Shown in pieces: positions 1 through 6,280 of a stretch of DNA of 6,280 nt. Location: IMG/VR virus record IMGVR_UViG_2690315994_000034; one strand, written 5' to 3'. Both the position numbers and the translations under genes were made by a program. Positions within the stretch are counted from its first letter, which is position 1. Each line of letters opens with the position of its first letter. Source of the DNA: a virus (taxonomy: Duplodnaviria > Heunggongvirae > Uroviricota > Caudoviricetes). The notes below the pieces were generated by a model. The model ran no database searches. It was not told where the DNA came from and saw nothing but the letters and a program-made list of their open reading frames with translations.

Positions 1-852
1 TTAACCGGCTTCGTTTTGACAGGTTGCCGGTCTTTCTTTTTTCACTTTCGCCAGTTCTTCCGCAGAGTAATGCGACGCGACATCCAGCCGTCGAAGCCCC
101 ATTTTGATGTACTCGCTGTTGATCTCAATACCAATGAATTTTCGTCCGCTGGCGATGGCTACGGCACCGGTAGTAAAGCTACCAGCAAACGGGTCGAGAA
201 CGATATCGCCTGGGTTGGAAGAGGCGAGAATAATGCGTTTCAGTAAGGCTTCCGGTTTTTGCGTCGGGTGGTTTTCATATTCATCCATCAAATAACGCAC
301 GCGCGGAAAATCCCAGACGTTACCCGGTACTTTTTGATGATTGTAAGGCTGTGGAGGATTTTTGCGATAATCGATCAACGCGCGCTGCGATCCGGTTTTG
401 GCTTCTACCAGAATAGCATCACCGTTGAATGTGTAGTTCTTTGCGTCTTTCACCATCATCAGGATGGGTTCGTACATGGAGCCGTAGTGTTTTTTCGCCT
501 GCACTCCAGAACTGTCATATGACCAGACGATGCGACTTTTGATGGTAAAAAGCTTGCGGCACTGGAGATCGATAAAGGGCATGTTTTCCGTACTGTTCAT
601 GATGTACATGCTGCCCTGCTTTTTCAGAACGCGGTGGCACTCTGCAATCACTTCTAACAGCCAGTCGATAAACAGATCTTCTTTCCAGGCTTCGATCAGA
701 CCATCAAAATTTTTACCGATGTTATACGGTGGGTCGGCAAAGATCAGATCGACGCTTTCAGTAGGTAGCTTTTTAAGTTCGGCAAGGGCATCACCGTGAA
801 TAATGGTCTTAGCTTCATTACCAAACCGGGTCGGTTCACATCCTGTTCTCAT
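1..852 (-). CDS. yhdJ: DNA adenine methyltransferase YhdJ-like (complete, 283 aa)
   Basis: Reverse-strand ORF with stop TAA at 1-3. Likely true start is ATG at 850-852 (protein begins MRTGCEPTRFGNEAKTIIHGDALAELKK), preceded by AAGGGAG 5 nt upstream; the ORF-track start at 916-918 is a TTG giving a 22-aa extension. Contains the DPPY motif (IFADPPYNIG) and an AdoMet-binding-like LDPFAGSFTTG segment typical of N6-adenine/N4-cytosine methyltransferases. N-terminus matches my recollection of E. coli YhdJ. Confidence 0.9.
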   Translation of the reverse strand: MRTGCEPTRFGNEAKTIIHGDALAELKKLPTESVDLIFADPPYNIGKNFDGLIEAWKEDLFIDWLLEVIAECHRVLKKQGSMYIMNSTENMPFIDLQCRKLFTIKSRIVWSYDSSGVQAKKHYGSMYEPILMMVKDAKNYTFNGDAILVEAKTGSQRALIDYRKNPPQPYNHQKVPGNVWDFPRVRYLMDEYENHPTQKPEALLKRIILASSNPGDIVLDPFAGSFTTGAVAIASGRKFIGIEINSEYIKMGLRRLDVASHYSAEELAKVKKERPATCQNEAG

Positions 853-876
853 GGTCACTCCCTTTGTGACACCTAT

Positions 877-914
877 AAAAAAGGCGCTTCCCCATGCCGA
901 GTAGCGCCTTTTAA
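877..914 (-). terminator. Rho-independent terminator, probably the fis terminator
   Basis: Stem GGCGCT (883-888) / AGCGCC (903-908), extendable by A:T pairs to 10 bp, 14-nt loop. On the minus strand the stem is followed by TTTTTT (complement of 877-882); on the plus strand by TTTT. Lies between the fis 3' remnant and the yhdJ start. Confidence 0.55.
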
Positions 915-936: not shown

Positions 937-957
937 TTAGTTCATGCCGTACTGTCA
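937..957 (-). other. fis: Remnant of fis 3' end; probable element/chromosome junction (att core copy)
   Basis: Minus strand reads TGA CAG TAC GGC ATG AAC TAA (stop-Q-Y-G-M-N-stop). Fis ends ..KKYGMN as I recall it. An in-frame stop sits immediately upstream, so only the last codons are present and upstream sequence is unrelated and AT-rich. Confidence 0.5.
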
Positions 958-1036
958 GATTAGCTGTTTTCATGCTTTTAGGTGATTTTAGTATTTATAT
1001 AATAATCAATGGCTTATTTAAATTTATGCCTGTATA

Positions 1037-1065
1037 TTGTTCCAGTGTTTTTCTTTGTTTATGCT
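1037..1065 (+). promoter_or_regulatory. Candidate sigma70 promoter for the integrase gene
   Basis: TTGTTC (1037-1042), 17-bp spacer, TATGCT (1060-1065), about 55 nt upstream of the integrase ATG. Weak match; region is AT-rich so chance matches are likely. Confidence 0.2.
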
Positions 1066-1081
1066 ATTATGCAAGCAATTC

Positions 1082-1103
1082 TGTATAAACATTTGTATAA
1101 ACA
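1082..1103 (+). repeat. Tandem direct repeat TGTATAAACA x2 in the integrase leader
   Basis: Identical 10-mers at 1082-1091 and 1094-1103, 18-27 nt upstream of the integrase ATG; a related TGTATATTGT at 1031-1040. Confidence 0.6.
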
Positions 1104-1120
1104 CTTTGGGCTGGTGGTCT

Positions 1121-2347
1121 ATGGCTGGCGAACTTAACAAACTGAGCGACAGGAAGTTAAAGGGATTACATGGCATCCCGGCCAGTAAGATTGAGTTCTA
1201 TGCTGATGGTGCCGGGCTGAGTGCCAAGGTAACGAAAGCTGGTGGTATTAGCTGGGTGTTTACTTACCGACTCGACGGGCAGAAGTTGCATCGTCTTACT
1301 CTGGGACGATACCCGGATATGAGCCTCAAAGAGGCCCGTTCCTCGCGTGATAAATGCCGCCAGTGGCTGGCCTCAGGTAAAGACCCAAAGCACCAGTTGG
1401 CGCTAACTACTCAGGAAACGCTTAAACCGGTCACGGTGCAGGAAGCTATCGAATACTGGATACGTGAATATGCAGAAGAGAATCGCGCGAATGTTGAGCG
1501 GCATAAAGCGGAGCTACGCAAACATATTTACCCTTACATTGGAAAAATGGCGCTCGCTGACTGCGAAACCCGATACTGGCTTGACTGCTTTGACAGGATG
1601 AAAAAGAAAACGCCAGTCGCCGCAGGTTATGTGTTCCAGATGTGCAAACAAGCCCTGAAATTCTGCCGGGTTCGTCGCTATGCTGTGAGTACCGCGCTTG
1701 AAGATTTAACAATTCCAGATGTCGGTAAAAAACAGGCAAAAAAAGATCGGGTATTAAACGATAAAGAGGCTGGCGATTTATGGACTGCCATTACCTCTAG
1801 CACTTGCTTCATGCCTTACTACACCAGGCTACTGACAATCTTAATGGTGTTTGGGTGCCGAACGCAGGAGGCCAGACTATCAGAGTGGAGTGAATGGGAT
1901 ATGGATGCCTGGGTCTGGACAGTTCCCAAAGAGCACAGCAAGGGCGGCGAGAAGATTGTAAGACCTGTGCCGGATGCCATGCGCAAATTCATTGAAATAC
2001 TGCATGATGAAACGAAACTATCCGGTCTTTTGCTTGGGTCGGTTAAAGGCAGTGAAGCGGTAAGCCAGTGGGGCCGTAGCGTTTATAAAAAGCTGGGGCA
2101 TTCTGAACCATGGACACTGCACGATCTAAGACGAACTTTAGCAACGCATATGAATAATATGGGTATAGCACCACACGTTGTCGAACAGTTGTTGGGGCAC
2201 TCAATGCCGGGAGTTATGGCGATTTATAACCGTAGTCTGTACTTGCCTGAGAAGCTGGACGCGCTGAATAAGTGGTATGAACGATTAGAACTTCTTGCGG
2301 GTAATCATCAAAATGTGGTTCTGTTACCTGTAATGAATAGAGATTAA
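1121..2347 (+). CDS. int: Tyrosine recombinase, P4-type phage integrase (408 aa)
   Basis: Likely start ATG 1121 (MAGELNKLSDRKLK..); the ORF-track start 1037 is TTG. N-terminal region (LSDRKLKGL..YADGAGLSAKVTKAGGISWVFTYRLDGQKLHRLTLGRYPDMSLKEAR) resembles the arm-binding domain of P4-like integrases. C-terminal catalytic signature present: R in FGCRTQEARLSEW, HDLRRT, LLGHS, tyrosine in AIYNRS. Stop TAA 2345-2347. Confidence 0.9.
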   Translation: MAGELNKLSDRKLKGLHGIPASKIEFYADGAGLSAKVTKAGGISWVFTYRLDGQKLHRLTLGRYPDMSLKEARSSRDKCRQWLASGKDPKHQLALTTQETLKPVTVQEAIEYWIREYAEENRANVERHKAELRKHIYPYIGKMALADCETRYWLDCFDRMKKKTPVAAGYVFQMCKQALKFCRVRRYAVSTALEDLTIPDVGKKQAKKDRVLNDKEAGDLWTAITSSTCFMPYYTRLLTILMVFGCRTQEARLSEWSEWDMDAWVWTVPKEHSKGGEKIVRPVPDAMRKFIEILHDETKLSGLLLGSVKGSEAVSQWGRSVYKKLGHSEPWTLHDLRRTLATHMNNMGIAPHVVEQLLGHSMPGVMAIYNRSLYLPEKLDALNKWYERLELLAGNHQNVVLLPVMNRD

Positions 2348-2380
2348 ACTGATATTGCGGGCCTAGGTCGGCCAACCGAA

Positions 2381-2402
2381 AAGCGGGAAACCCTACCCGC
2401 TT
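2381..2402 (+). terminator. Hairpin between integrase and next gene; weak terminator candidate
   Basis: AAGCGGG (2381-2387), 8-nt loop, CCCGCTT (2396-2402); flanked by a partial outer palindrome GCCAA..TTGGC. No T tract follows, so terminator function is doubtful. Confidence 0.25.
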
Positions 2403-2440
2403 GGCTCGCAAATTAATTTAGGGGCGTTGAGGGCAGCGCA

Positions 2441-3370
2441 ATGGCTAACGACATTAAAATACCTTTTCAATACTGCAATATTGAACGTGCGTCGAGATTG
2501 CTGGGTTGTGAGATTAGCGACCTGATTAATTTAGGTGTTACTAAAAAAATATCTTTATGTCTAAATTTGTTTGATGCTCGCGCTGTTTTATATATGAGAA
2601 CTGACAGCAAATCTGCATGCGACTGGTTCGATACCAGAAAGGCAAACTCCACCACATCCATGATGGGAAACAATATTACTGAATTTTCCAGGCTTCATCT
2701 CTACAGATGCGATTACAATGAGGAAACGGAAGAAACGATTCACGTGCCTTTATTTGGTCAAGATACAGAAAATGGGTGTTTCAGTTCTATTGGTAAGGCT
2801 TATGGGTTGTGGCGTCTTTGGAGCGGATTAGAAGAGCTACAAAATTTTGGAGAGTATGCCCTAAGTGGTTTTGAATTAACCCCGTGCCATCCAGAAACTG
2901 ATAATCCCGCCGTACAGCTTTTAATGGTTGGCGAAGATAGCGATTATGATGAAGAAGACGATCAAGTATTCAAAAATAAAATCTCTATAAACGATTTGTG
3001 GATTACTGCTCAGGATATAAGGCGGCTCCTTGACTGTGGTGGCGATTATTTCACGCTGACAGATGATATTGAATTTGTAGAACCTCATAAGATGAATGGC
3101 AATGAAATTGTTCATCATTCTGCTGAAAGACATGCAAGAAATCGAGAGCAAATTTTAATGGTAGCCATGCGCTTCAAAGAAGAGCAGCAAAATGCTTTTA
3201 ATGAGAGTTGCAGAAAAACAGATGGAACTATTAACTATTCTGCCTGGGCCCGTGAGTTGATCGCCAGACCTGACTGGTTCATCAATGGTGAATTGCCAAT
3301 AAAAACAGAAACGAAAATAGCAGCAATATTAAACAATGCGCATAAGAGGCCGAGCGAAAGAACACAGTAA
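2441..3370 (+). CDS. Hypothetical protein, 309 aa, function unknown
   Basis: ATG at 2441 with GAGGG 7 nt upstream; stop TAA 3368-3370. Noticeably AT-richer than flanking genes (first 60 nt are about 37% GC). Contains acidic patch GEDSDYDEEDDQ and two helix-turn-helix-like stretches (IERASRLLGCEISDLINLG and ISINDLWITAQDIRRLLDCGG). No catalytic motif recognised. Confidence 0.65.
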   Translation: MANDIKIPFQYCNIERASRLLGCEISDLINLGVTKKISLCLNLFDARAVLYMRTDSKSACDWFDTRKANSTTSMMGNNITEFSRLHLYRCDYNEETEETIHVPLFGQDTENGCFSSIGKAYGLWRLWSGLEELQNFGEYALSGFELTPCHPETDNPAVQLLMVGEDSDYDEEDDQVFKNKISINDLWITAQDIRRLLDCGGDYFTLTDDIEFVEPHKMNGNEIVHHSAERHARNREQILMVAMRFKEEQQNAFNESCRKTDGTINYSAWARELIARPDWFINGELPIKTETKIAAILNNAHKRPSERTQ

Positions 3371-3391
3371 GCCTTACTCATATACTCCTAT

Positions 3392-3428
3392 AGCATACTG
3401 ATATATTTATAAGCATTATCAGTATGCT
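3392..3428. repeat. 12-bp perfect inverted repeat AGCATACTGATA / TATCAGTATGCT with 13-bp spacer
   Basis: Arms at 3392-3403 and 3417-3428, between the 309-aa gene stop and the alpA start; followed by ATGCTT x2. Could be an operator, recombination-related site or terminator. Confidence 0.5.
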
Positions 3429-3508
3429 TCTATGCTTACAACTGTATTTCTATCCAGTGTTAACGGTTGCAAACTAGCCTCCACAAACTTAGAAACAGTG
3501 GAGGCAAC

Positions 3509-3793
3509 ATGCAAAACCCCATTTTTACCCCGCCTAATCCTGAACAGCGCCGCACCCTTTTAGAAGAGTACGGCTTTAAGTTCGATCGTCGAATCCGTGA
3601 AGAAGAATGTAGCGAGATCACCAGCCTTTCCCGTTCCAGCCGTTGGAAAATGGAGCAGCAAGGACGATTTCCGCCACGCTGCCACTTCGGCCGCAATAGC
3701 TGTGCCTGGCTTCTTTCTGATGTGCTCTGGTGGGTTCGTAATCCGCCTGTAGTAGAGAACGTCAATAACCCATACAGCCGCAAATCTGCTTAA
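3509..3793 (+). CDS. alpA: AlpA-family phage transcriptional regulator / excisionase-like HTH protein (94 aa)
   Basis: Likely start ATG 3509 with GTGGAGG 4 nt upstream; ORF-track start 3467 is TTG. Segment ITSLSRSSRWKMEQQGRFPPRCHFGRNSCAWLLSDVLWWVRN fits the AlpA pattern (LSRSTIYR..G.FP.P...G.R...W...EV..W). Confidence 0.8.
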   Translation: MQNPIFTPPNPEQRRTLLEEYGFKFDRRIREEECSEITSLSRSSRWKMEQQGRFPPRCHFGRNSCAWLLSDVLWWVRNPPVVENVNNPYSRKSA

Positions 3794-3813
3794 TTAACTA
3801 CAGGTAATCAGAG

Positions 3814-4524
3814 ATGAAAAAGATTAATGCCCTCAACGGGCAGGGATTCGCTCACCCTGAAGCCAGCCAGAGCGATATTTTAATTAATCACAAATCGGAG
3901 CCGCGTATCGATTCCCGCGTTATTTCAGAGCGAGCCGGAATACAACATGAAAGCCTAAGCGCGACGATTAAATCGCACCAGAGCAGATTGCGCGAGCTGG
4001 GATCACTGCCTCGTCAGTCACTCAAGGAATTAACCGATTTGAAATCGGGAAAATCCGGCCGAAAGCGTGGGCGTCCTGAGATTAGTTATCTGCTGAATGA
4101 GCCGCAGCTCGACTATCTGCTGCGTATCACCCGAGGGCGTGATCCTGAGCGTATTAACCAGTTCAAACTGGATGTTACGAAGGCATTCACTAAGCGCCGC
4201 GCCGCAGAACCTATCCGCCGTGAGTACCTGCCTGGCTATCACGAAAGCCGCGACAGATTAAAAGCTCTGGGCGCACAACGGCACCATTACATCAATCTGG
4301 CCCGCGCTGAAAACCGCGTGGCTGGTTTGTCTGATGGTGAACGCGGTACCGCAGACGAACAGCAATTGGGGCTGTTGGTAGTGATGCAGAAAATCGAACA
4401 GGCGGCCTTTAATGAGGCGGTGCGTAATGACATGAGTCCAGGCGATGCGGTGCGTGAGGTTGCCCGCCGTATGGATGCGTTCGCCAGCCTGATCACTTCA
4501 TCGTCAGTGTTGGAGATTCGCTGA
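3814..4524 (+). CDS. Rha-family phage regulatory protein-like (236 aa)
   Basis: ATG 3814, stop TGA 4522-4524. Segments DSRVISERAGIQHESLSATIKS and ISYLLNEPQLDYLLRITRGRDPERINQFKLDVTKAF resemble the Rha N-terminal domain as I remember it (..TSSR.IAE.FGKRH..VLR.I.. and ..GY.LT..GF..L.M.FTG..A..FK..YI.AF..). Confidence 0.65.
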   Translation: MKKINALNGQGFAHPEASQSDILINHKSEPRIDSRVISERAGIQHESLSATIKSHQSRLRELGSLPRQSLKELTDLKSGKSGRKRGRPEISYLLNEPQLDYLLRITRGRDPERINQFKLDVTKAFTKRRAAEPIRREYLPGYHESRDRLKALGAQRHHYINLARAENRVAGLSDGERGTADEQQLGLLVVMQKIEQAAFNEAVRNDMSPGDAVREVARRMDAFASLITSSSVLEIR

Positions 4525-4546
4525 TGCGTCTTATGCCTAAAATTTT

Positions 4547-4568
4547 GCGCTCCCCCGTTTGGGGGCGC
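4547..4568 (+). terminator. GC-rich hairpin just downstream of the Rha-like gene; weak terminator candidate
   Basis: GCGCTCCCCC / GTTT loop / GGGGGCGC, 23 nt after the stop. No clear T tract on the plus strand (TCAAATCC follows). Confidence 0.25.
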
Positions 4569-4663
4569 TCAAATCCTTGTGAGTTAGCCGCGTGCTATTT
4601 GCATAACTCAATCAGGGTTGCGCAGAATTTGAGCCGACGAAATTCGCACGTACAAATTAACCG

Positions 4664-4680
4664 CGTACGTTTAACGTACG
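4664..4680. promoter_or_regulatory. 17-bp palindrome CGTACGTTTAACGTACG; candidate operator
   Basis: Perfect 8-bp arms around a central T; contains two CGTACG hexamers; a further ACGTAC at 4648-4653. Same core as the palindromes at 5247-5286. Confidence 0.4.
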
Positions 4681-4832
4681 GACATCTCAACCCATTGAAT
4701 CATTTTGATTATCGCGAAACGCGAGAATTGGCGAGCAACGAACACGAACAGTATTCGGGTTCTCCTGAACATCAACACTGCTTAGGTTCAGAGGTTCCGA
4801 CGAAAAACGTAGAGAGCTGCGAAGATAACCAA

Positions 4833-4847
4833 CCCTCTTTAAGAGGG
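4833..4847 (-). terminator. Candidate terminator of the leftward RHH/small-peptide operon
   Basis: Palindrome CCCTCTTTAAGAGGG. On the minus strand the hairpin is followed by TTGGTTATCTT, and it lies 33-47 nt downstream of the small-peptide stop. Confidence 0.3.
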
Positions 4848-4879
4848 CCAGTTAAAGGCATTACAGGGAGTAACCCTGA

Positions 4880-5032
4880 TCAGCCATTTTTACAGCCTTT
4901 CAGTACATCGCCAGGGTTAACGGAACAGTCAGGCTTCCAAAGCGAATCGAAAAAACCGAATTGGTACAAAATCCATAAAATAATTAGTGCAATGAGAATG
5001 CGACCTGGGAGGGTATGTAACAGCCAGTTCAT
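4880..5032 (-). CDS. Small single-pass membrane peptide, 50 aa (not in the ORF track)
   Basis: Hand-translated minus strand: ATG at 5030-5032 preceded by GAAGGAG (5041-5047) with 8-nt spacing; stop TGA at 4880-4882. Product MNWLLHTLPGRILIALIILWILYQFGFFDSLWKPDCSVNPGDVLKGCKNG has an 18-residue hydrophobic stretch and a short polar tail with two Cys. Starts 21 nt after the RHH gene stop. Confidence 0.5.
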   Translation of the reverse strand: MNWLLHTLPGRILIALIILWILYQFGFFDSLWKPDCSVNPGDVLKGCKNG

Positions 5033-5053
5033 TATTTTATCTCCTTCTGAAAT

Positions 5054-5245
5054 TCAACCTTTTGGCTCTATGCCGCGCCGCTTTAGTTCTGCCCTAGCTA
5101 ATTCTTTAAACCAGTTACCAAGGGTTAGACCGTCAGAAGTTGCCGCCTCATTTACTTGTTGGCGTAGCTCTTTACTGATTCTGATTTGGAAGGTTGGAGA
5201 CCATCCCTCACCGCGTGGCGATTTATCGCGCTTTAATGTTGACAT
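5054..5245 (-). CDS. Ribbon-helix-helix (Arc/MetJ/CopG-like) DNA-binding protein, 63 aa
   Basis: ATG at 5243-5245, only possible start (in-frame TAG upstream); AGGAG 12 nt upstream. PTFQIRISKELRQQVNEAATSDGLTLGNWFKELARAELKRRG fits strand / helix / G-x-T turn / helix of RHH repressors, compared by eye with P22 Mnt and Arc. Confidence 0.5.
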   Translation of the reverse strand: MSTLKRDKSPRGEGWSPTFQIRISKELRQQVNEAATSDGLTLGNWFKELARAELKRRGIEPKG

Positions 5246-5267
5246 GTACGTACGTAACTCCTATTAT
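5239..5267 (+). promoter_or_regulatory. Near-consensus sigma70 promoter, rightward
   Basis: TTGACA (5239-5244), 17-bp spacer, TATTAT (5262-5267); predicted start near 5274. The -35 box overlaps the RHH start codon on the opposite strand. Confidence 0.5.
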
Positions 5268-5286
5268 CATTGCTGTTACGTACGTA
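5247..5286. promoter_or_regulatory. Twin palindromic operator candidates TACGTACGTA x2
   Basis: Identical 10-bp perfect palindromes at 5247-5256 (inside the promoter spacer) and 5277-5286 (at the predicted transcription start), spaced exactly 30 bp. Confidence 0.5.
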
Positions 5287-5303
5287 CAATATCAGTAGGT
5301 ACA

Positions 5304-5346
5304 GTAAAAAGCAAAGCCCCGCAAGTGTCGTTACCACTCGCAGGGC
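5304..5346 (-). terminator. Strong hairpin, terminator-like on the minus strand
   Basis: GCCCCGCAAGTG (5316-5327), loop TCGTTAC, CACTCGCAGGGC (5335-5346): 12-bp stem with two mismatches. On the minus strand it is followed by TTTGCTTTTTAC; on the plus strand by TTCTAACC (poor). Lies in the leader between the promoter and gene 5385-5588. Confidence 0.4.
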
Positions 5347-5384
5347 TTCTAACCACCAACGATAGAAAGCGTATCGAGGTAGCT

Positions 5385-5588
5385 ATGAGAAATCATACCA
5401 CACACCCGCAAGGGCGGGACTCGCACAACCTGAATAAATACATCTGGCGTTTTATCGCCCTGAGCACGGCACAACCGCGCGTGATTACCATTGAGGCCAC
5501 CAGCGAACAGGAAGCACGCCAGCAATCTCCGGCTGGCTGCGTGATGGTATTCGCTGCCCGTATTCGTCAGGGGTCACATCATGCGTAA
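5385..5588 (+). CDS. Small protein, 67 aa, ends in ARIRQG motif; possibly Ash-like/Icd-like
   Basis: ATG 5385 with GAGG 5 nt upstream; stop TAA 5586-5588 overlaps the next ATG (ATGCGTAA). Shares YxWRF..EATSEQEARQQ..FAARIRQG with the C-terminus of the next ORF. The family name is a vague recollection, not a verified match. Confidence 0.55.
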   Translation: MRNHTTHPQGRDSHNLNKYIWRFIALSTAQPRVITIEATSEQEARQQSPAGCVMVFAARIRQGSHHA

Positions 5589-6048
5589 AAACCGCTTGCA
5601 AAAAATTATCACGGGGCTGTATGCTTCCCCCGTCGCCCACATGGCGACCGGGTTTGACAGCCTGAATACATCTGGCGGACAGCCGCCCACATCCGATAAG
5701 CGGTTTTTTTGTGTCCGTAAACCTACCCATACCCGCATTATGGCGGGGCGTAACGGGGGAGCCTTTGTGCTCGCTGGTTTCCAGATGACCAGTCTGTCAA
5801 CCCTGTTACGTCTCGCCACCATGTTTGACAGCGTAGTAGCGAGACTCCTTAAAATTCATCTGGGAGCCTTTCACATGGCTGTATCCGCACGCCCTTATTT
5901 TGTCTGGCGCTTTATGCAGTGCCAGGAAAAACAAACCTCACTCTTTACCGTCACGGCAGCAACAGAACGCGAAGCCCGCGCCCAGCTGCCGCACGCACAT
6001 CTGATTTTTGTCGCCCGTATTCGTCAGGGGGAAACCTATGCACAATAA
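5581..6048 (+). CDS. Protein of 155 aa whose C-terminal 50 aa are paralogous to the preceding gene
   Basis: ATG 5581 overlaps the upstream stop and sits 7 nt after GGGG, the same arrangement as the next junction at 6038. C-terminus YFVWRF..TAATEREARAQ..FVARIRQG. N-terminal 98 aa are compositionally odd (R/G/S/T-rich), so the real gene may start at ATG 5875 (57 aa). Confidence 0.45.
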   Translation: MRKNRLQKIITGLYASPVAHMATGFDSLNTSGGQPPTSDKRFFCVRKPTHTRIMAGRNGGAFVLAGFQMTSLSTLLRLATMFDSVVARLLKIHLGAFHMAVSARPYFVWRFMQCQEKQTSLFTVTAATEREARAQLPHAHLIFVARIRQGETYAQ

Positions 6049-6280
6049 AACCACGCCGGACGCAGCCGCCGCCGCGCTCACTACGCTGATGCATGCGCTT
6101 ATTGATATTGAATGCACAGCAGGGCTTGCACAAAAGGAAGAACGGGAAGAATACACATTGTTCGCCCTGGAATGCATCCGATACACCGCCACGCGGTCGC
6201 TGAATGACGCTAAAAATATTCTTGTTGCTGATTGTGAAAATGGGGAGGGTGCCCCTATTAAGTTGTCAAGCATGTTATGA
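6038..6280 (+). CDS. Hypothetical protein, 5' part only (runs off window end)
   Basis: ATG 6038 overlapping the upstream stop (ATGCACAATAA), AGGGGGAAA 4 nt upstream; ORF-track start 6008 is TTG. 81 codons with no stop before the window ends. Confidence 0.5.
   Translation: MHNKTTPDAAAAALTTLMHALIDIECTAGLAQKEEREEYTLFALECIRYTATRSLNDAKNILVADCENGEGAPIKLSSML

Follow-up and report, generated by a model that had tools for sequence, protein, structure and literature searches.

Positions 937/952-6280 of the window (the whole 6,280-nucleotide stretch of DNA analysed) are very probably the left end of a Gram-negative PICI (phage-inducible chromosomal island) integrated at fis, the unseen right part of which most probably holds the late module of a capsid-forming PICI (cf-PICI). 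Represented in it are the Integration zone, the Bro zone, an immunity switch and the gene that opens the replication operon. Since the fis-PICI family is large and already described, with 2,642 and later 3,565 mapped islands sharing the identity block TACGGCATGAACTAA (PMC10111431), the island is an ordinary member of it, and its uncommon feature is the RNA-based immunity switch. By its sequence, this switch is an antisense-RNA immunity module of the P1 immI / P4 CI type. The earlier note saw a compact switch, which is present, but missed its nature; it also held that no named element fits, whereas fis PICIs match both in the identity block and in the integrase, 97% identical to that of vB_KppS-Ant.

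Insertion site and family membership

Mobile-element DNA fills all of the window from 937/952 to its end and is inserted at the 3' end of fis. The left part and its chromosomal flank contain the following features.

1..852, minus strand: yhdJ (DNA adenine methyltransferase), chromosomal flank outside the element; N6_N4_Mtase 2.8e-64
875..914, no strand: fis terminator hairpin, chromosomal copy stranded on the yhdJ side; near-identical to the K-12 fis-yhdJ intergenic sequence
937..951, no strand: attL identity block TTAGTTCATGCCGTA, the reverse complement of TACGGCATGAACTAA, as in fis PICIs (PMC10111431)
1082..1103, plus strand: TGTATAAACA twice in tandem, immediately before int; putative arm-type sites for integrase binding (P' arm)
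1121..2347, plus strand: tyrosine integrase with arm-binding domain, fis-targeting clade; Arm-DNA-bind_3 6e-19 and Phage_integrase 2e-17 (Pfam)
2356..2424, plus strand: int-alpA RNA motif, Rfam RF02996, role not assigned; 61.2 bits, gathering score 35.8
2441..3370, plus strand: accessory gene of 309 aa occupying the variable slot between int and alpA; winged-helix/MerR/Xis-like fold at its N-terminus
3509..3793, plus strand: alpA, activator/excisionase-type regulator; PF05930 4e-10, phrog_2790 3e-38
3814..4524, plus strand: Bro-zone gene, weakly Rha-like, 236 aa; phrog_2657 'transcriptional regulator' 1.7e-7

Positions 937-951 are the last four fis codons and the stop codon, left at attL adjoining yhdJ, and match the fis-PICI identity block exactly as the reverse complement of TACGGCATGAACTAA. 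This core at the fis terminus is an attachment site of the specific kind, not used by prophages, that is expected of Gram-negative PICIs (PMC6092414). On the left the element begins at 937, counting the core, or at 952, its first exclusive base, and not at the 958 of the earlier note, whose fis insertion site nevertheless stands. The right boundary lies beyond the window; the contig stops 64 bp past the window end, so the element is known from its left end alone and its own continuation is out of sight. In E. coli relatives the same flank gene is annotated yhdJ, with yhdU-acrS-acrEF farther out, and the attR identity block is found in all five of them. The relatives' elements bring their own diverged copy of the fis terminator hairpin at attR/attP. 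The pair of TGTATAAACA repeats is also present near attR in four relatives (L001, L007, L019 and L020), and in a packaged genome, L009, which shows attP architecture, it flanks the core on both sides.

The integrase gene starts 170 bp from the junction of chromosome and element, and its Pfam matches uphold the earlier placement of an integrase there. Its product is 97% identical in amino acids to the vB_KppS-Ant integrase and 66-97% identical to the integrases of 17 species, each adjoining a fis core, which is the integrase clade of the fis PICIs (PMC10111431). In each of the 17 species representatives with such an integrase, the fis core TTCATGCCGTA precedes int by about 180 bp and alpA follows it. 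The left-end int (1121-2347) and alpA (3509-3793) are co-oriented on the plus strand, as in Gram-negative PICIs (PMC6092414). Further marks of that class are a size of about 12-16 kb and an induction and packaging that depend on a helper phage. After int come the int-alpA RNA motif, the 309-aa gene, alpA and the weakly Rha-like gene; these are followed by a divergently arranged ribbon-helix-helix gene and promoter, a pair of Icd-like genes and, last in the window, an 80-aa ORF. The RNA motif lies at the equivalent place in the E. coli cf-PICI L001 (51.1 bits). The AlpA call of the earlier note is secure (PF05930 39.9 bits, cut-off 21); its role as regulator is carried over from experiments on EcCICFT073 (PMC6092414). 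A gene does lie where a Rha-type regulator had been proposed and is 98% identical in DNA to that of L001, but the Rha label itself is doubtful, with Phage_pRha at 25.8 bits, below the cut-off of 29.9. Other fis elements fill this slot with AntA/AntB, KilAC or Rha genes.

The genome of vB_KppS-Ant (16.5 kb) came from a phage preparation, was induced from Klebsiella pneumoniae DSM 30104 and is more than 99% identical to a region of the chromosome of that strain, which carries the characterised cf-PICI KpCIDSM30104. The integrase comparison thus gives, at the level of the family, the close identity to an already characterised element that the earlier note had named as counting against its reading. 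The cf-PICI core set consists of MCP, prohead protease, portal, head-tail adaptor/connector, HNH, TerS and TerL, with no tail or holin genes (SatelliteFinder, PMC10085698). Family profile searches of 958-6280 found no structural genes, as the earlier note had said of its 5.3 kb; this is true of the window only, because genes for head and packaging are present in relatives at this site. Each of the five E. coli fis elements inspected has MCP, S78 protease, portal, closure, connector, HNH, TerS and TerL, with tail and lysis genes absent. The packaged genome L009 matches them in head and packaging genes and has, in addition, one ORF with a tape-measure annotation that is taken to be an error. MCP, protease and portal are present in 11 of 14 informative species loci, again as a late module free of tail genes, and a replication module (primase/pri-rep) follows the regulator in all complete relatives. 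Excision has been demonstrated for one fis PICI, Kpn47.16.fis of K. pneumoniae BAA-2146 (PMC10111431). Extrapolation from the fis relatives is imperfect, because the right-hand module of the window (~4880-6280) is not that of other fis elements and comes from PICIs at other attachment sites.

The antisense-RNA immunity switch

The features of the right-hand part of the window are as follows.

4524..5588, plus strand: 354-codon ORF, candidate for a nested ORF of the P4 eta/kil type, translation predicted
4880..5032, minus strand: 50-aa hydrophobic ORF, unverified, downstream of the RHH gene
5054..5245, minus strand: 63-aa ribbon-helix-helix (RHH) protein, may repress the divergent promoter; YlcI/YnfO, HicB and Arc-like matches, all below threshold
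5239..5267, plus strand: promoter TTGACA-17-TATTAT, 11/12 sigma-70 match, facing the RHH gene
5245-5258 / 5275-5288, within 5239..5288, plus strand: perfect 14-nt inverted repeat bracketing the -10, putative operator
5385..5588, plus strand: Icd-like gene 1, 67 aa; NF033153 69.8 bits (cut-off 25), phrog_6196 1e-45
5654-5660 and 5669-5675, plus strand: upstream C4 target sites a1 (TTGACAG) and b1 (CATCTGG); Rfam c4-a1b1 46.8 bits, gathering score 46.7
5736..5823, plus strand: C4/CI-type antisense immunity RNA; RF01695 72.6 bits, gathering score 45
5825-5831 and 5856-5864, within 5825..5866, plus strand: downstream C4 target sites a2 (TTGACAG) and b2 (TCATCTGGG)
5875..6048, plus strand: Icd-like gene 2, 57 aa; NF033153 55.1 bits, ATG aligned with the P1 icd start
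6038..6280, plus strand: 80-aa ORF overlapping the stop of Icd-like gene 2 by 11 nt; phrog_5146 1.4e-13, function not assigned

The C4 RNA is 78% identical in DNA to P1 c4, scores 98.8 bits with our own covariance model and has a fold energy of -47 kcal/mol (z = -6.5); alignment to the 77-nt P1 C4 places the mature RNA at about 5742-5820. The a1/b1 complementarity was computed, and the sites are collinear with the annotated P1 a1/b1. As in the P1-type immI, the a' and b' segments of the RNA are complementary to both a1/b1 and a2/b2, and b2 overlaps the GGGAG Shine-Dalgarno sequence (5862-5866) of Icd-like gene 2. Cognate b'/b2 pairs extend over 8-10 nt in six different elements and non-cognate pairs over 3-6 nt; the RNA segments covary three-way with both target pairs across these six specificities. 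Icd-like gene 2 is 50% identical to P1 Icd (E 9e-14), and its start codon aligns with those of P1, P7 and D6. The 80-aa ORF after it is the first of a run of small ORFs that leads to primase in relatives; in L003 and L004 an ORF at the homologous position is followed by DUF4222 and then by primase or a RepA helicase. C4 is uncommon among fis PICIs, although C4/isrK Rfam matches are known in some PICI Bro zones (PMC10111431). L004, an unrelated E. coli PICI sitting at tqsA, has exactly the C4 RNA of the window (100% identity).

The divergent repressor/promoter region of the earlier note is borne out by the RHH ORF (5054-5245, minus strand), the promoter (5239-5267, plus strand) and the 14-nt inverted repeat. 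The exact 63-aa RHH protein occurs in 1,370 collection blocks, among PICIs at many attachment sites, and is the candidate repressor of the divergent promoter. Family searches gave no match for the 50-aa ORF at 4880-5032. The 354-codon ORF has an ATG that overlaps the stop of the Rha-like gene, runs across the antisense RHH gene and the promoter, and ends in 67 codons that are Icd-like gene 1. The nine relatives examined all have a corresponding open frame, 244-366 codons long, ending at the Icd stop in eight of them and at the icd start in L006; the ORFs of L001 and L009 are 53% and 37% identical in amino acids to that of the window, with indels in frame. The frame of Icd-like gene 2 is likewise open from 5581, giving a 155-codon ORF through a1b1 and C4. 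The stop/start overlaps at 4524, 5581-5588 and 6038-6048 agree with the small translationally coupled genes described before.

Proposed mechanism and alternatives

The sequence, together with experiments in relatives, shows that the arm-type tyrosine integrase recombines a core of 13-15 bp at the end of fis, and that the island, bringing its own stop codon and terminator to attR, leaves fis intact. By analogy with P1 immI and P4, the RHH protein probably holds down the 5239-5267 promoter in the resting state through the 14-nt inverted repeats, and this promoter would make a leader from which the C4 RNA of about 79 nt is processed. The single-stranded segments CUGUCAA and CCAGAUGA would pair with a2/b2 and mask the ribosome-binding site of Icd-like gene 2, blocking its translation, and polarity would then shut off the downstream replication genes. 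Because Icd-like gene 1 sits upstream of C4, and hence outside its control, the model needs the predicted repression of the promoter by a protein. On induction a helper phage would turn on alpA, and AlpA would activate its own operon and excision, as shown for EcCICFT073. The alpA transcripts may be translated without a break from the Rha-like gene through the 354-codon, 155-codon and 80-aa ORFs, as the P4 PLL/eta case suggests, and would therefore pass the immunity region despite C4. The island would then replicate with its primase, build its own small capsids and package itself with its own TerS/TerL while needing helper-phage tails, by analogy with the five E. coli fis elements and that of DSM 30104. 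Production of C4, binding of the RHH protein to the repeats and translation of the long ORFs are all predictions. It is tentatively suggested, at rather less than even confidence, that the C4-Icd cassette replaced the replication-entry region of the subfamily and that the C4 RNA, if functional, gives trans immunity of satellite against satellite. If so, C4 immunity would act between islands at different chromosomal sites, and the conserved chain of long overlapping ORFs would point to the translation-dependent anti-termination of P4 (eta/kil) as a bypass for induction that PICIs and cf-PICIs use in general.

A fis PICI that has no capsid, portal or TerL genes, being either classical or short in kind or else decayed to a remnant, and that uses helper capsids or is immobile, is unlikely, though the most probable of the alternatives. 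In three of the 14 informative representatives, MCP, protease and portal are missing from the 10 kb next to int; one of the three, L039, has only ~9.6 kb between its two cores. The switch/replication-entry module is common to PICIs that have only a capsid gene (L003, L004, L010, L011), some E. coli fis elements (H7, H8) carry an IS1 insertion, and the contig break directly past the window fits a repeat or IS. The capsid-forming reading is nevertheless preferred, as all five E. coli fis elements and the DSM 30104 island form capsids and the RHH/switch module is also present in the full cf-PICIs L015 and L018.

Far less probable is a P4-like satellite with the sid-delta-psu capsid-size redirector and alpha primase. 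The integrase has the P4-family arm-type fold, AlpA is a homologue of Vis (30% identity), and the C4/isrK/a1b1 triad and nested-ORF layout match the P4 left operon. The window does have an immunity RNA of the CI/C4 kind with a seqA-type target in a primase-operon leader, but the Rfam triad reflects a shared mechanism and is insufficient for P4-like membership. Identity of the integrase to P4 Int is only 24%, compared with 97% for the integrase of the cf-PICI; int and alpA point the same way at the left end, which is the Gram-negative PICI arrangement and not that of P4, and fis is a PICI site. The window contains nothing of the SatelliteFinder P4-like core set (sid, delta, psu, epsilon). Searching the 21-kb loci of the 17 species representatives (int plus 10 kb downstream) by tblastn with the Sid, Psu and Delta proteins of P4 gave no hit, and the annotations of six complete fis elements list no sid, delta or psu either. 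A P4-like satellite in the defined sense is therefore rejected, so that of the satellite or P4-like element proposed in the earlier note there remain the helper-dependent, satellite-type island and the P4-like layout from alpA to replication. That an ordinary temperate prophage at fis ends in this stretch is scarcely credible: a junction integrase, regulators and an Icd/C4 pair like that of phage P1 speak for it, but tail-gene signatures occur in none of 3,565 fis islands (PMC10111431), yhdJ and fis lie 15-16 kb apart in each of the five E. coli cases, and an inward-pointing int followed by alpA is a satellite signature, in line with the earlier preference for a satellite over a full prophage.

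Comparison with known systems

The window shares with the fis PICIs (PMC10111431) the attachment site, the identity block at the fis terminus, the integrase clade, the co-oriented int and alpA and the order of Integration, Bro and Replication zones. It differs in joining an Integration/Bro zone ~92-98% identical to that of L001 with a switch module from other sites, a combination present in none of 5,426 complete E. coli genomes. KpCIDSM30104 was sequenced as vB_KppS-Ant (LR881103.1), with which the window shares, besides the integrase, an alpA about 91-95% identical. The cf-PICI of DSM 30104 has the same attP arm repeats and core and the same variable slots, after int and at the gene after alpA; that island has no C4 RNA and differs in the gene after int and in the replication-entry genes. 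A further cf-PICI is EcCIGN02175 (He et al., bioRxiv 10.1101/2025.02.11.637232).

The order in P4 immunity of vis/alpA, a long ORF with the immunity RNA, a small Icd/Kil-type ORF, further small ORFs and primase resembles that of the window. The P4 region has the promoters PLE/PLL, the segments seqA-CI-seqC and kil nested in eta. As in the window, the C4/isrK/a1b1 Rfam triad lies inside the P4 eta/'cI' ORF, and the long ORF begins upstream of the internal promoter, coupled to an upstream gene. The differences are that the window is without sid, delta, psu and epsilon, that protein similarity to the P4 ORF is marginal (E 0.08), that it has two successive nested ORFs and two icd-like genes where P4 has one, and that an antisense RHH gene lies inside the first long ORF.

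P1/P7 immI differs from the window in what surrounds the RNA: ant follows icd in the phages, whereas the 80-aa ORF toward the replication genes does so here; an antirepressor-like (Rha) gene lies upstream in the window; and in place of the C1 operator the TACGTACGTA inverted repeat by the RHH gene flanks the promoter. The b' segment CCAGAUGA is unlike those of P1, P7 and D6, and the b segment sets specificity, as between P1 and P7. The window is otherwise collinear with P1/P7 immI in a1-b1-C4-a2-b2-icd, with 78% DNA identity over 190 bp, and in both b2 lies over the icd ribosome-binding site and the next gene overlaps icd.

Gene order and the fis attachment site

The six-frame ORF list and family scans, together with Rfam for the RNA motif, give the following order of genes from the chromosomal flank into the element.

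1-852, minus strand: yhdJ, DNA adenine methyltransferase, chromosomal
937-951: last four fis codons and stop, TTAGTTCATGCCGTA
1121-2347, plus strand: tyrosine integrase (int) with arm-binding domain
2356-2424, plus strand: int-alpA RNA motif, Rfam RF02996 (61.2 bits), directly past the int stop
2441-3370, plus strand: 309-aa ORF of no family
3509-3793, plus strand: alpA
3814-4524, plus strand: 236-aa ORF, weakly Rha-like, under the Pfam cut-off
4880-5032, minus strand: 50-aa hydrophobic ORF
5054-5245, minus strand: 63-aa ribbon-helix-helix (RHH) ORF
5385-5588, plus strand: Icd-like ORF 1 (NCBIfam NF033153, passed)
5821/5875-6048, plus strand: Icd-like ORF 2 (NCBIfam NF033153, passed)
6038-6280, plus strand: 80-aa ORF

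The same scans find no tRNA or structural gene in the window, and the layout described in the earlier note, free of structural genes, is accurate. Comparison of the window with the empty K-12 fis-yhdJ site and with a filled site shows that 853-951 is chromosomal, containing the fis terminator and the end of fis, and that the first element base is 952. The chromosomal backbone has E. coli synteny, acrEF-acrS-yhdU-yhdJ. In complete relatives the 13-nt core AGTTCATGCCGTA is found again within the fis 3' end at attR, where a new stop codon and the element's own copy of the fis terminator are supplied. A pair of TGTATAAACA repeats adjoins int at 1082 and 1094; such pairs are also found close to attR in four of the five complete E. 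coli relatives inspected (the fifth, L006, has a single copy there) and flank the core on both sides in attP of the packaged relative. The repeats look like arm-type sites to which the integrase would bind. An exact-protein match of the last ORF puts the window on contig CYBJ01000051.1 (14,652 bp) of assembly GCA_001284825.1 and on no other contig. That contig stops 64 bp past the window, and the element described here is the left part only, before the primase, the late genes and attR.

The 309-aa gene occupies a variable slot past int, which in other fis elements holds DUF6387 or unrelated genes. Its family has about 20 clusters, the named ones coming from Enterobacter, Photorhabdus and Arsenophonus. 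The gene has no defence-system or Pfam match, and no relation of its product to the same-slot DUF6387 genes was found; a weak N-terminal relation connects it to the same-slot gene of the E. coli element PE15. An AlphaFold2 model of reasonable quality (pLDDT 81.8) gave weak structural matches, the N-terminus being like winged-helix, MerR and Xis-type DNA-binding domains. The RF02996 motif precedes the 309-aa gene here, not alpA, and its 3' end, UUUAGGGG, is found 17-24 nt ahead of the ATG at 2441. Given the AlpA/MerR/Xis-like fold modelled for the N-terminus, the motif may act as a 5' leader to AlpA-fold genes.

Relatives and class of the element

The element is, with high confidence, a fis PICI, a phage-inducible chromosomal island inserted at the fis 3' end, and a capsid-forming (cf-PICI) module probably makes up the right half beyond the contig end. 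The fis PICIs are a named, abundant and experimentally studied family, most of them capsid-forming. Exactly this group was reported as 2,642, later 3,565 islands, with TACGGCATGAACTAA as the identity block at the fis terminus, AlpA in nearly all members, tail-gene signatures in none and excision of Kpn47.16.fis verified by experiment; PICI zones follow the order Integration, Bro, Replication, Late (PMC10111431). In the PICI EcCICFT073, alpA is induced by helper phages and AlpA activates the island (PMC6092414). The cf-PICI core set has been defined, and the left part of a cf-PICI can match that of a classical PICI exactly (PMC10085698), so that the window alone cannot settle the class.

Among 5,426 complete E. 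coli genomes only 19 carry the integrase with coverage of 80% or more of the query; it adjoins yhdJ in all 15 listed among the 19, as in all five inspected. These five (L001, L006, L007, L019, which is PE15, and L020) are 15-16 kb islands with yhdJ on one side and fis on the other. Their left half holds int, a variable gene, alpA and a Bro-zone gene of Rha, AntA or KilAC type, followed by a small minus-strand gene (lacking in PE15), an icd-like gene, small ORFs and the primase. The late zone consists of major capsid, HK97-type protease, portal, head closure, connector, HNH, TerS and TerL genes, with one or two accessory genes after TerL at the right end; tail or lysis genes were found in none of the five.

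The same architecture is present in vB_KppS-Ant (LR881103.1), a 16.5-kb "phage" in the phage database whose integrase is 97% identical in protein sequence to that of the window. Its authors state that induction of K. pneumoniae DSM 30104 yielded it and that it has >99% identity to a region of that genome. DSM 30104 carries KpCIDSM30104, a capsid-forming PICI shown to make tail-less capsids and to borrow helper tails. A 765-aa ORF in the accessory slot past TerL of vB_KppS-Ant (2036-4333) is labelled "tail length tape measure protein", and the original paper took the element for a filamentous ssDNA phage; in both cases a cf-PICI seems to have been misannotated.

Outside E. coli, the integrase turned up in 17 species when a single genome of each species was scanned, from Enterobacter, Klebsiella, Pluralibacter, Pectobacterium, Brenneria, Rosenbergiella, Rahnella, Proteus, Serratia, Erwinia, Yersinia and Scandinavium. 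In all 17, int is preceded at a distance of about 180 bp by the fis core and followed by alpA; capsid, protease and portal genes follow 7-10 kb past int in 11 of the 14 loci with enough sequence, and one of the 14 is a short island of 9.6 kb. The earlier note had proposed a phage-satellite-like or P4-like element matching no named element that it could identify. What it observed holds, and a satellite is the right kind of element, the named group being the fis PICIs; by gene content it falls outside the P4 class, since P4 sid, psu and delta are found in none of the related species loci. What seemed an unnamed islet is one end of well-studied phage satellites, the fis PICIs and cf-PICIs, which transfer between enterobacterial genera and often carry defence genes, and the result matters mainly as annotation.

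Mosaic structure

The element is a new mosaic member of this family. Up to about 4850 the window resembles L001, an E. coli cf-PICI (identity 96% for int, 92% for the 309-aa gene, 94% for alpA and 98% for the Rha-like gene), and from about 4880 it carries a module known in PICIs at other sites. The stretch 5600-5870 is 100% identical to an E. coli PICI at tqsA, and the exact RHH protein is shared with PICIs at yejM/tRNA-Pro and elsewhere on the chromosome and is also present inside prophages, the islands that have it ranging in their late zones from a single capsid gene to the full cf-PICI set. The recombination joint is near 5054-5090. Coverage of the window is at most 81% in any complete E. 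coli genome, and in these genomes the junction region 4525-5400 is covered solely as two separate pieces from different elements. Past the RHH gene lies the very hydrophobic 50-aa ORF (4880-5032, minus strand), which has no database match; other PICIs with the identical RHH protein have a 117-aa ORF there instead.

Rfam C4 and isrK match the Bro zones of some PICIs (PMC10111431). Among the 24 fis elements examined, namely the window, five from E. coli, the packaged genome of DSM 30104 and one from each of the 17 species, a C4-type RNA is present in two, the window and PE15, the latter divergent. Rfam, blastn and a covariance model built here found no C4 in the closest fis cf-PICI relatives except PE15. 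Because PE15 alone among the 23 other elements has one, the cassette is uncommon at fis and not unique. A putative P1/P4-type RNA-immunity cassette in a fis PICI may be of modest specialist interest.

Predicted RNA immunity and nested reading frames

The part of the window from Icd-like ORF 1 onwards contains two RNA features above their Rfam gathering scores, and alignment to the annotated immI region of phage P1 gives the antisense target sites.

5619-5668: c4-a1b1 target motif (46.8 bits, gathering score 46.7)
5654-5660: a1, TTGACAG
5669-5675: b1, CATCTGG
5736-5823: C4 antisense RNA (72.6 bits, gathering score 45)
5825-5831: a2, TTGACAG
5856-5864: b2, TCATCTGGG, overlapping a GGGAG Shine-Dalgarno sequence
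5875: ATG of Icd-like gene 2, aligned with the P1 icd start

A sub-threshold isrK match was kept solely as a member of the P4-like triad; the sub-threshold matches to STnc40 and SAM_alpha in the window and to MIR395 in L001 were disregarded. The C4 RNA folds at -47 kcal/mol (z = -6.5), far better than shuffled controls. The window is collinear with P1 immI in every element, a1-b1-C4-a2-b2-icd start, with 78% identity to the P1 c4 region over 5644-5833 and 50% identity to P1 Icd for the protein from the ATG at 5875. The compact switch of the earlier note is, by its Rfam match and this collinearity, an RNA immunity module of P1/P4 type and not a novel switch.

A comparison of the window with P1, P7, D6 and two E. 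coli PICIs shows that in each of the six the b' segment of C4, CCAGAUGA in the window, changes together with both b targets. Cognate pairing covers 8-10 contiguous nt versus 3-6 for non-cognate combinations, and a' and both a targets co-vary too (CTGTCAA versus CTGCTAA). This covariation gives good comparative support to a functional antisense interaction and to an immunity specificity of the window's own. An extra b-type CATCTGG at 5441-5447, inside icd-like gene 1, is complementary to C4 b', has no adjacent a-type site and may be due to chance. In an E. coli PICI at yejM (GCA_000167915.2), two tandem C4-type RNAs (9086-9181 and 9564-9658, minus strand; 101.9 and 50.4 bits with the covariance model built here) sit inside an ORF with a Phage_ASH Pfam match.

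The sole strong sigma-70 match in the element, TTGACA-17-TATTAT at 5239-5267, faces the icd/C4 genes and overlaps with the beginning of the RHH gene, which runs the other way. Its -10 is flanked by the two halves of a perfect 14-nt inverted repeat, TGTACGTACGTAAC / GTTACGTACGTACA (5245-5258 and 5275-5288). The RHH protein would repress this promoter, and some such control seems needed because icd-like gene 1, upstream of C4, would otherwise be constitutive. The palindrome CGTACGTTTAACGTACG at 4660-4682 has the CGTACG half-site of these repeats and may be a third site for the same protein, 570 bp away. A strong 15-bp hairpin at 5313-5349, between the promoter and the start of Icd-1 and, read on the minus strand, upstream of the RHH gene, has a T-run on the minus strand and resembles a terminator of leftward transcription. 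Its possible roles are to stop an antisense transcript, to insulate the RHH gene or to give structure to the plus-strand leader.

From the Rha-like gene onwards the plus strand is a chain of overlapping ORFs (3814-4524, 4524-5588, 5581-6048 and 6038-6280). The second, of 354 codons, crosses the promoter and the RHH gene on the opposite strand, and its final part is Icd-1; the third, of 155 codons, crosses a1b1, C4 and a2b2, and its final part is Icd-2. All nine relatives examined have an equivalent open frame, 244-366 codons long, which begins at the stop codon of the preceding gene or close to it; it closes at the Icd stop in eight and where icd starts in L006. The long ORF stays in frame over indels of 9 and 18 codons, and a non-coding gap at 4525-4880 was rejected on the strength of this conserved frame. 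The corresponding ORFs of L001 (22524-23534) and vB_KppS-Ant (8578-9552) have a duplicated LHNSIRVAQN-like peptide-coding motif, single in the window, with in-frame indels; the duplication may reflect repeated DNA or RNA elements in the ORF.

P4 is matched by the same three Rfam families, inside its eta/"cI" ORF and immediately ahead of it, and its genes run from vis through the immunity ORF and small ORFs to the primase. Similarity between P4 Kil/Eta and the Icd-like protein is marginal (E 0.08) and was not used as evidence. Nesting of kil in eta and translation-dependent escape from immunity termination are known from P4; its arrangement, with kil as the terminal part of eta and the eta start upstream of PLE, matches the nested ORFs of the window. 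When eta is translated from an induced upstream promoter, immunity-dependent termination is prevented (summarised in PMC10111431). By analogy with P4 eta, alpA-driven transcripts would bypass C4 control, and the long ORF nested over icd, conserved in all relatives examined, suggests that translational read-through control of the P4 style may be widespread in PICIs.
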